Shown in pieces: positions 28,383 through 30,621 of a stretch of 64,000 nt of DNA. Origin of the DNA: Eledone cirrhosa (Eukaryota); NCBI GenBank assembly GCA_964016885.1, contig OZ024748.1, forward strand, positions 60,016,001 to 60,080,000. Direction: 5' to 3'. The notes under the pieces were generated by a model. That model ran no database searches, was not told where the DNA came from, and worked only from the letters and a program-made list of their open reading frames with translations. Position 1 is the first letter of the stretch, and the number at the start of each line of letters is the position of its first letter. Both the position numbers and the translations under genes were made by a program.

Positions 28383-30621
28383 ATGTGTGTGTGTCCGCAT
28401 GTATCTGTGTGTTTCTAAATGTATTAATAACTCCCTCTGGTCGAGCAATCTTTGAAGTGTGGGGACAACTGGAAAGCTTCCATTACTCATACTTCTCGCC
28501 TTCTTCACTACCTCTTCTACGGCCTCGATATGAATACCCCCTCCGCCTCCGTGGTATTTTTTTCGTGGTTATAAGAGGCTTAGCTCTGTTTCTCGACCGT
28601 TATATCGCGTGACTATCTCCCCCTCCGCCTTTTGGGATTCTTTCTCACGTCGTGTAGACGCGTTCTTGAGACTAGTAAAATGAGGTATCCTCTTGATAAG
28701 TCGGCAGACCTCGCAAGGACTCTATATCTTTGATATATTGTTTTTGTTTATGCCACGAAACTACGTAGTCGAGGAATTTAGGAACAGTTTAGGTATGATA
28801 CATTTTATTACTAATTATATCTAAATGTTTCTTCTCTCTTCATAATGTATTTTTAACTCTGATACTGGTTCAGTCTGGTTCAAACTGAATTGGTCTGTCC
28901 CAGTCATTCATTGAGCAACATCGGTGAAGTTGGCACCCTTAACTCACAGTTGGGTGCGGATGCATTCATGTATATATGTGTGTGTCCGCATGTATCTGTG
29001 TGTTTCTAAATGTATTAATAACTCCCTCTGGTCGAGCAATCTTTGAAGTGTGGGGACAACTGGAAAGCTTCCATTACTCATACTTCTCGCCTTCTTCACT
29101 ACCTCTTCTACGGCCTCGATATGAATACCCCCTCCGCCTCCGTGGTATTTTTTTCGTGGTTATAAGAGGCTTAGCTCTGTTTCTCGACCGTTATATCGCG
29201 TGACTATCTCCCCCTCCGCCTTTTGGGATTCTTTCTCACGTCGTGTAGACGCGTTCTTGAGACTAGTAAAATGAGGTATCCTCTTGATAAGTCGGCAGAC
29301 CTCGCAAGGACTCTATATCTTTGATATATTGTTTTTGTTTATGCCACGAAACTACGTAGTCGAGGAATTTAGGAACAGTTTAGGTATGATACATTTTATT
29401 ACTAATTATATCTAAATGTTTCTTCTCTCTTCATAATGTATTTTTAACTCTGATACTGGTTCAGTCTGGTTCAAACTGAATTGGTCTGTCCCAGTCATTC
29501 ATTGAGCAACATCGGTGAAGTTGGCACCCTTAACTCACAGTTGGGTGCGGATGCATTCATGTATATATGTGTGTGTCCGCATGTATCTGTGTGTTTCTAA
29601 ATGTATTAATAACTCCCTCTGGTCGAGCAATCTTTGAAGTGTGGGGACAACTGGAAAGCTTCCATTACTCATACTTCTCGCCTTCTTCACTACCTCTTCT
29701 ACGGCCTCGATATGAATACCCCCTCCGCCTCCGTAGTATTTTTTTCGTGGTTATAAGAGGCTTAGCTCTGTTTCTCGACCGTTATATCGCGTGACTATCT
29801 CCCCCTCCGCCTTTTGGGATTCTTTCTCACGTCGTGTAGACGCGTTCTTGAGACTAGTAAAATGAGGTATCCTCTTGATAAGTCGGCAGACCTCGCAAGG
29901 ACTCTATATCTTTGATATATTGTTTTTGTTTATGCCACGAAACTACGTAGTCGAGGAATTTAGGAACAGTTTAGGTATGATACATTTTATTACTAATTAT
30001 ATCTAAATGTTTCTTCTCTCTTCATAATGTATTTTTAACTCTGATACTGGTTCAGTCTGGTTCAAACTGAATTGGTCTGTCCCAGTCATTCATTGAGCAA
30101 CATCGGTGAAGTTGGCACCCTTAACTCACAGTTGGGTGCGGATGCATTCATGTATATATGTGTGTGTCCGCATGTATCTGTGTGTTTCTAAATGTATTAA
30201 TAACTCCCTCTGGTCGAGCAATCTTTGAAGTGTGGGGACAACTGGAAAGCTTCCATTACTCATACTTCTCGCCTTCTTCACTACCTCTTCTACGGCCTCG
30301 ATATGAATACCCCCTCCGCCTCCGTGGTATTTTTTTCGTGGTTATAAGAGGCTTAGCTCTGTTTCTCGACCGTTATATCGCGTGACTATCTCCCCCTCCG
30401 CCTTTTGGGATTCTTTCTCACGTCGTGTAGACGCGTTCTTGAGACTAGTAAAATGAGGTATCCTCTTGATAAGTCGGCAGACCTCGCAAGGACTCTATAT
30501 CTTTGATATATTGTTTTTGTTTATGCCACGAAACTACGTAGTCGAGGAATTTAGGAACAGTTTAGGTATGATACATTTTATTACTAATTATATCTAAATG
30601 TTTCTTCTCTCTTCATAATGT
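28383..30621 (+). repeat. Tandem array of ~3.8 x 591 bp near-identical units, each with a U3-A8 hammerhead (retrozyme-like)
   Basis: Period 591 (28385, 28976, 29567, 30158); one G>A difference noticed in unit 3; (TA)n at both ends. Confidence 0.95.
28688..28775 (+). ncRNA. Type I hammerhead with U3-A8 core and extended stem/loop II (also at 29279-29366, 29870-29957, 30461-30548)
   Basis: Stem I TCCTC/GAGGA, core TTGATAA, stem II GT(C)GGCA/TGCCAC, GAAA, palindrome ACTACGTAGT and GUC triplet. Confidence 0.75.

Follow-up and report, generated by a model that had tools for sequence, protein, structure and literature searches.

In the portions of the literature consulted, metazoan non-LTR retrozymes are described as tandem repeats that code for no protein and hold a single type I hammerhead in each unit, with a GC content below 45%, thousands of copies, a highly self-paired predicted circle and a co-occurrence with Penelope-like elements (PLE) (Cervera and de la Pena 2020, PMC7229834; Li, Clavereau and Pollet, bioRxiv 10.64898/2026.07.22.740005). 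Their units span 51-972 bp, a PLE origin has been described for them, and 8 of 9 predicted Xenopus retrozymes failed to cleave in vitro (bioRxiv 2026.07.22.740005). The hallmarks of PLE themselves i.e. partial tandems, inverted 5'-truncated copies, a one-sided tail of 30-40 bp and a bias towards (TA)n targets are given in PMC8557442, where the mechanism of tandem and inverted insertion and the role of the hammerheads are stated to be open questions. Hammerheads with U3-A8 in the core are a published natural variant, stated to be active in vitro (Perreault et al. 2011, PMC3088659), and have about 1,300 matches in Schistosoma PLE (PMC4209133). Pseudoknots of the stem I/II region are known as well and are required for fast cleavage; pseudoknots of 4-6 bp were reported in about 40% of representatives and in all three hammerhead types (PMC3088659).

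We analyzed a window of 64,000 nucleotides from Eledone cirrhosa (contig OZ024748.1, positions 60,016,001 to 60,080,000), which contains a tandem array of 591-bp units. The family to which this array belongs shares the traits by which these retrozymes are described above, and its unit length falls within their span. It differs from the metazoan retrozymes, as far as the consulted descriptions go, by its U3-A8 core, its 57-nt stem II and a predicted pseudoknot between a 5' leader and an internal loop of stem II; its unit, a predicted RNA, is longer than the characterised retrozyme RNAs of 170-400 nt. Two fixed insertion ends with inverted arms, present in this family, do not appear in those descriptions. 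With the hammerheads of PLE pseudo-LTRs (pLTRs), as presented in the sections consulted (PMC4209133; PMC8557442), the family shares partial tandems, an inverted 5'-truncated copy, an extension at one end, the (TA)n bias, a 5-bp stem I and a palindromic stem III, and it has U3-A8 in common with the Schistosoma Cercyon elements (PMC4209133). It differs from PLE in having no ORF and ends 165 nt apart instead of the published 30-40 bp tail, and from their hammerheads in that the palindrome of stem III has 10 nt and is not minimal, and that no extra nucleotide lies between A9 and G10.1. The predicted pseudoknot of the stem I/II region and the U3-A8 pair, a natural covariation there, recall the pseudoknotted hammerheads; here the predicted partner is an internal loop of a stem II that goes on for 15 further pairs, and the bearer is a repetitive animal type I motif, a distinction drawn from the text description in PMC3088659, with which an identical topology is possible. 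In the literature, surveyed mostly by listing, we found no 591-bp family, no leader/internal-loop pseudoknot in a retrozyme and no two-ended retrozyme. PLE hammerhead variants have reportedly been described by Lunse et al., which may bear on novelty. We consider the predicted pseudoknot and the two fixed insertion ends as new, and the U3-A8 core and the unit length as already known. The core and the length had both been taken for unusual in an earlier note on this DNA: U3-A8 is indeed the state of the whole family, but it is a published variant, and 591 bp falls within the published range.

Table 1. Features of the 591-bp array and its neighbourhood (positions in the window)
Feature	Position	Strand	Remark
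Left (TA)n target microsatellite	28308..28384	.	
Array, 3.79 tandem 591-bp units	28384..30623	+	single-arm insertion, fixed 3' end = site A
Type I hammerhead, copy 1	28681..28775	+	predicted; copies 2-4: 29272-29366, 29863-29957, 30454-30548
5' leader UGAGGU, predicted pseudoknot strand	28681..28686	+	overlaps the hairpin of the earlier note
Stem I, 5' strand	28688..28692	+	pairs with 28771-28775; one covarying pair U-A/U-G/C-G
Core U3-U4-G5-A6-U7-A8-A9	28693..28699	+	
Stem II: basal helix of 6 bp with one bulge, then internal loop and extension of 15 pairs	28700..28756	+	
ACCUCG, stem II internal loop, predicted leader partner	28708..28713	+	
GAAA, palindromic stem III (28760-28769), GUC	28757..28770	+	predicted cut after 28770
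Predicted 591-nt monomer, cut to cut	28771..29361	+	further: 29362-29952, 29953-30543
Family end site A, +80 from cut	28831..28850	+	internal here; used at 30623
Family end site B, +245 from cut	28995..29015	+	internal here; outer end of inverted arms elsewhere
Right (TA)n target microsatellite	30621..30666	.	
Neptune-like PLE	31430-34435	minus (578-aa frame 31990-33726)	RT and GIY-YIG motifs

Self-comparison of the window gave 591 as the best period over the array, and the comparison of each position i with i+591 showed a single internal substitution (29735) and an extra TG at the 5' edge. The near-identical units and the (TA)n borders claimed previously are thus confirmed, the 5' end being a truncation at an internal TATATA. 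Also as claimed, the unit is unrelated to the 310-bp family of the same window: blastn of the unit against the window matched only the 591-bp array. TCCTC-TTGATAA occurs once per unit, in four copies (28688, 29279, 29870 and 30461), and GAAACTACGTAGTCGAGGA is found at 28757, 29348, 29939 and 30530; the palindrome and GAGGTATCCTC lie where the earlier note had placed them. Complete type I hammerhead motifs in at least two consecutive units are therefore present in the window (four copies), and tandem arrays were found elsewhere in the genome too. The GC content is about 39% in the bin which holds the array. Neither within the unit nor between units did we find a long ORF, the six-frame translation being broken by stops, nor the RT and GIY-YIG ORF between pLTRs that marks an autonomous PLE.

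Each unit carries, in the order TCCTC / UUGAUAA / 57-nt stem II / GAAA / 10-nt palindrome / UC / GAGGA, a predicted type I hammerhead whose core has a Watson-Crick pair at 3-8, U4-G5-A6, A9, G12-A13-A14, A15-U16 and H17, surrounded by three helices with stem I open and the pair G10.1-C11.1. The predicted cut position rests on the hammerhead consensus as quoted in PMC7151607, in the part of that text consulted. The earlier description of a U3-A8 hammerhead with an enlarged stem II and a palindromic stem III holds in every unit. In the stem II region a 44-nt insert separates the basal strands; its extension pairs 28714-28728 with 28732-28746 (13 of the 15 positions paired in the first copy of the window), and the predicted fold of the region is an extended hairpin (z -3.93; 1 of 200 shuffles was equally stable). 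A gathering search of the window with Rfam gave 0 matches, a weak test which missed the canonical hammerhead of the 310-bp family too.

The family is large. A 23-mer across the cut site has 7,458 exact matches in the 3.0-Gb genome, compared to 0 for the reversed-pattern control. Sister subfamilies, all of which keep U3-A8, were reached via a diverged fragment in locus L014; eight of their full monomers measure 580-597 nt and are 73-82% identical to the window unit, with a core conserved at 98-99% versus 80% for the rest of the unit. A pattern of the 5' half in which any base was allowed at positions 3 and 8 had 5,999 matches in the genome; among the first 100 listed, 99 had U3-A8 and one U3-G8. 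The same state prevails in 228 distinct flanked copies: U3-A8 in 225, U3-G8 in 1, C3/A8 in 2 and C3-G8 in none. Searches for relatives with a short stem II or C3-G8 gave 13 genome matches, all of them deletion or truncation mutants. In a search for relatives with a different stem II base, the 30 of 44 matches that were inspected consisted of point mutants and junctions left by truncation, apart from a few that matched by chance. A young-subfamily insertion directly adjoins an older sister-subfamily insertion in one place (L270 / L014, G000:C1:15.42 Mb), which suggests that the same (TA)n target was reused.

Across 161 copies GAAA and UC are invariant, and those substitutions of the stem II extension that recur often (each in 10-36 copies) preserve pairing. 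For the alignment of structures 40 copies spanning the subfamilies were hand-picked from 111 distinct sequences and further loci. In these copies 94.4% of the cells of the named structure are paired, compared to 34-53% in slid controls, with 97% for stem I, 98.7% for the stem II base and 99.2% for stem III. One pair of stem I varies among the 228 copies as U-A (187), U-G (16) and C-G (20), with no C/A and 5 other combinations; one pair of the stem II extension is likewise U-A, U-G or C-G, and is unpaired in 8 of the 40 copies. These covariation counts reflect few events, because related copies share ancestry. The earlier reading had been made to depend on whether other genomic copies keep the core and the stems: they conserve both, and stem I covaries.

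The folding energies do not by themselves select the active form. The active hammerhead fold lies 1.1 kcal/mol above the minimum free energy (MFE) when the pseudoknot is left aside; in the minimum-energy folds with flanks or as a circle the leader hairpin forms and stem I is lost. RNAalifold, in which pseudoknots are impossible, recovers the stem II extension and not the active stems I and III. Stem III is unstable in the monomer (+1.5 kcal/mol), while the palindromic duplex reaches -12.9 kcal/mol. These modelled energies fit a cleavage as dimer like that of the PLE hammerheads in the consulted part of PMC4209133.

The leader UGAGGU just upstream of stem I can be read in two ways. In the earlier note it belonged to a hairpin, GAGG-TAT-CCTC (28682-28692), which would sequester stem I and regulate cleavage. 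We predict instead that it is better read as a pseudoknot strand, its duplex with the internal loop being worth -6.9 kcal/mol versus -3.6 for the hairpin. The cells of this predicted 6-bp helix are 99.2% paired in the 40 copies, and its end pair varies as U-A (78), U-G (143) and C-G (6), with A/A in 1 of the 228 copies; a decayed copy outside this count (L067) has C/A there. The covariation thus concerns one pair and probably one or two events. The hairpin is broken in 12 of the 40 copies, including 11 in which stem I has changed to C-G and the leader is unchanged; it is 91% paired, lacks covariation, and a register slid by two is paired at 98.8%. Part of the earlier proposal may still hold: the hairpin is present in the pseudoknot-free MFE of the circle of the window subfamily, with stem I disrupted, and in that subfamily the modelled hairpin could possibly act as a switch. 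A helix of 6 bp between UGAGGU and the internal loop, stabilising the hammerhead, is the reading towards which conservation and one covarying pair incline us, and because these two are its basis we place it only somewhat above even chances. Another partner was tried for the loop: pairing of its ACCUC with the 3' strand of stem I was rejected (70% paired, no covariation).

The insertions of the family have the anatomy of PLE insertions i.e. a fixed 3' end, 5' truncation, an inverted 5' copy, a one-sided tail and a microsatellite target. Two fixed ends are used. Sites A and B, which lie 165 nt apart, both end in AATRTAT and run into (TA)n; exact junctions with (TA)n number 2,644 for site A in the genome and 1,260 for one variant of site B. 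The sister subfamilies use these two sites too, and in a public run each of them turns up as a loose end. We surveyed the first 90 listed of the 2,644 A-ended insertions, all on one contig (C1), among which L085/L086 may be a local duplicate. They are distributed as follows: in 51 cases an inverted arm ran to B, in none to A and in 1 elsewhere; 2 ran off the fetched edge, and 36 were single-armed. An apparent exception with two B ends is a sister-family locus (L324). The array of the window is a single-arm case of this anatomy. The earlier idea that its partial last unit was copied from a circular template agrees with the insertions insofar as a circular or multimeric template fits them; the end itself is not random and is the fixed end of the family.

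Arm lengths and haplotypes bear on the template. Of the 90 A arms, 86 extend past the cut site and 42 are longer than one unit. The 5' ends do not cluster at the cut: 2 of 143 fall within 5 nt of it, versus 2.7 expected. In the 35 insertions with an arm overlap of 100 or more unit positions, partner arms diverge by 0.82%, compared to 2.86% between insertions; rare variants of arm A are shared with arm B in 35 of 69 cases and not shared in 34. The arms overlap, and twin priming on one linear monomer is therefore excluded. In one insertion (L139) a long B arm stands beside an A arm of 70 nt, so the B arm is not a fold-back copy of A. We infer, as the simplest reading, twin priming: a single RNA, circular or multimeric, would be primed by both strands of the target. 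Gene conversion could also homogenise arms.

Taken together, the array is probably a high-copy non-coding non-LTR retrozyme mobilised in trans by the RT/endonuclease of a PLE. The conserved core and stems, the covarying stem I and the insertion anatomy all support the retrozyme or pLTR-like unit with a type I hammerhead proposed earlier. In the mechanism we propose, a tandem locus would be transcribed and the hammerhead would cut after GUC, stabilised by the leader/loop pseudoknot and by dimerisation of stem III between neighbouring units. The 591-nt monomer would then be ligated into a circle, the alternative being an uncut multimer. The PLE enzyme would nick (TA)n, the 3' ends of the target would prime at the AAURUAU sites A and/or B, and copying would continue beyond the cut site, over as many as about 5 units. 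One priming event would yield a single arm; both target strands priming on the same RNA would yield the inverted A+B form. Ligation into a circle is, for this step taken separately, the outcome we favour, with reservations. A further proposal is tentative and rather doubtful as a whole: a circular RNA parasite of 591 nt whose hammerhead would have a tertiary design not described so far, the leader switching between the pseudoknot (active) and the hairpin (circle protected), and whose two dedicated priming sites, 165 nt apart, would let a PLE enzyme copy one circle from both target strands. A contig of 621 nt from a public run (X1), which covers one unit end to end, was rejected as a sign of a circle, a tandem array giving the same contig.

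A rival reading also has the element mobilised by a PLE: if the hammerhead were slow, or served only to trim ends, an uncut multimeric read-through transcript could be the template of the PLE enzyme and no circle would be needed. The arms that cross the cut site without any 5' pile-up there are in line with this, as are the inactive MFE folds and the poor cleavage of PLE hammerheads in vitro, reported in the consulted part of PMC4209133. However, the core and the stems are conserved and covary across subfamilies, and the divergence between neighbouring tandem units of an arm is as low as 0.67%. As a circle, moreover, the monomer is strongly self-paired (-172.6 versus -134.7 +/- 6.7 kcal/mol, z -5.7; 0 of 40 shuffles as stable), and mussel and coral retrozymes yield abundant circles, according to the text consulted (PMC7229834). 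We regard the uncut template as unlikely.

Two other explanations dispense with an independent mobile RNA. The units might be orphan pLTRs i.e. 5'-truncated ends of an unsampled autonomous PLE: ends and inversions are of the PLE type, 24 of 57 Xenopus retrozyme families have a reported homology to pLTRs (bioRxiv 2026.07.22.740005, as far as consulted), and one of the 90 surveyed insertions (L138, G000:C1:70686112-70691412) joins the 5' part of a 900-aa PLE ORF to 1.85 units of the 591-bp family. Yet that junction is a microhomology of 4 nt, and other copies of this PLE have a 3' end of their own, unrelated to the unit; the chimera is a template switch or a later deletion. Long arms wrap into a further 591-bp unit and not into an ORF, the unit length is maintained across subfamilies, about 580-598 nt, and none of five coding families examined shares DNA with the unit, so that orphan pLTRs seem quite improbable to us. 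A satellite amplified at the DNA level by unequal crossover or gene conversion, with the hammerhead as a passive relic, would account for the near-identity inside arrays, and local tandem amplification is mentioned as a route by Li et al. in the portion consulted (bioRxiv 2026.07.22.740005). Thousands of dispersed short arrays and structural covariation speak against it, and the anatomy of the ends, in which the 3' ends are fixed at (TA)n, the 5' ends scatter and arms are inverted, largely refutes it; we give it hardly any credence. The trans-mobilised retrozyme is thus retained as the preferred reading.

To look for the helper we examined the coding PLE. The genome holds young PLE families inserted in (TA)n with long ORFs (frames of 775, 791, 834 and 900 aa). 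No DNA similarity to the 591-bp unit was found in five families (the Neptune-like PLE of the window, the 791-aa family of L009, and the 900-, 775- and 834-aa families), and the expectation that the unit would be the terminal repeat of a PLE ORF was not borne out among these five coding families. Sensitive alignment covered the 775-aa family (local score 30, versus 30.8 +/- 3.7 for shuffled sequence). This family (L201, L208, L214, L229), labelled Neptune-like from motifs and not from a tree, has in its terminal repeat a compact U3-A8 hammerhead, U3-U4-G5-A6-A7-A8-A9, with 6,009 exact matches in the genome. Like the 591-bp family it combines a U3-A8 type I hammerhead with a palindromic stem III, insertion in (TA)n and two ends, the first about 80 nt past the cut, and it is young, its copies being 99% identical; unlike it, it has a stem II of 4 bp, ends about 65 nt apart and an ORF. 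The Neptune-like PLE of the window is truncated and lies 1.4 kb from the array; one of its arms is inverted and 5'-truncated, and its two ends are separated by about 45 nt. The ORFs neighbouring the array gave only weak RVT_1 matches with Pfam. In the 3' region of the 834-aa PLE (L262-L265) we observed several CUGAUGA half-core repeats, for which the scan gave no GAAA match nearby.

Descriptors built on C3-G8 and short stems miss much in this genome, where two unrelated U3-A8 families account for more than 13,000 exact motif matches. The thousands of young, ORF-free insertions allow ends, arm lengths and arm haplotypes to be read directly, and the 591-nt unit is a candidate substrate for an in vitro system. 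If the reading with a circle and two priming sites were true, the 'tail' of PLE would correspond to the spacing of two priming sites; the element would be a minimal substrate for reconstituting PLE retrotransposition.

Other features of the window were also noted. In the 310-bp x5 array (13155-14718), a relaxed descriptor picked out a type I hammerhead of the canonical C3-G8 kind in all five units, its stem III being a palindrome of 6 nt; the array is a second, ordinary retrozyme family. Just upstream of the 591-bp array, at 28148-28228, lies a hammerhead-like motif with CUGAUGA, a long stem II and a TGCGCA palindrome, similar motifs being present in other loci. A fragment of a LINE-type reverse transcriptase occupies 58376-58858 (RVT_1, E 1.4e-14). 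The remaining repeats are a 15-bp minisatellite in 45 copies (44920-45586) and a GT-rich tandem region (21943-23103), whose minus strand could encode a low-complexity Thr/Pro repeat.
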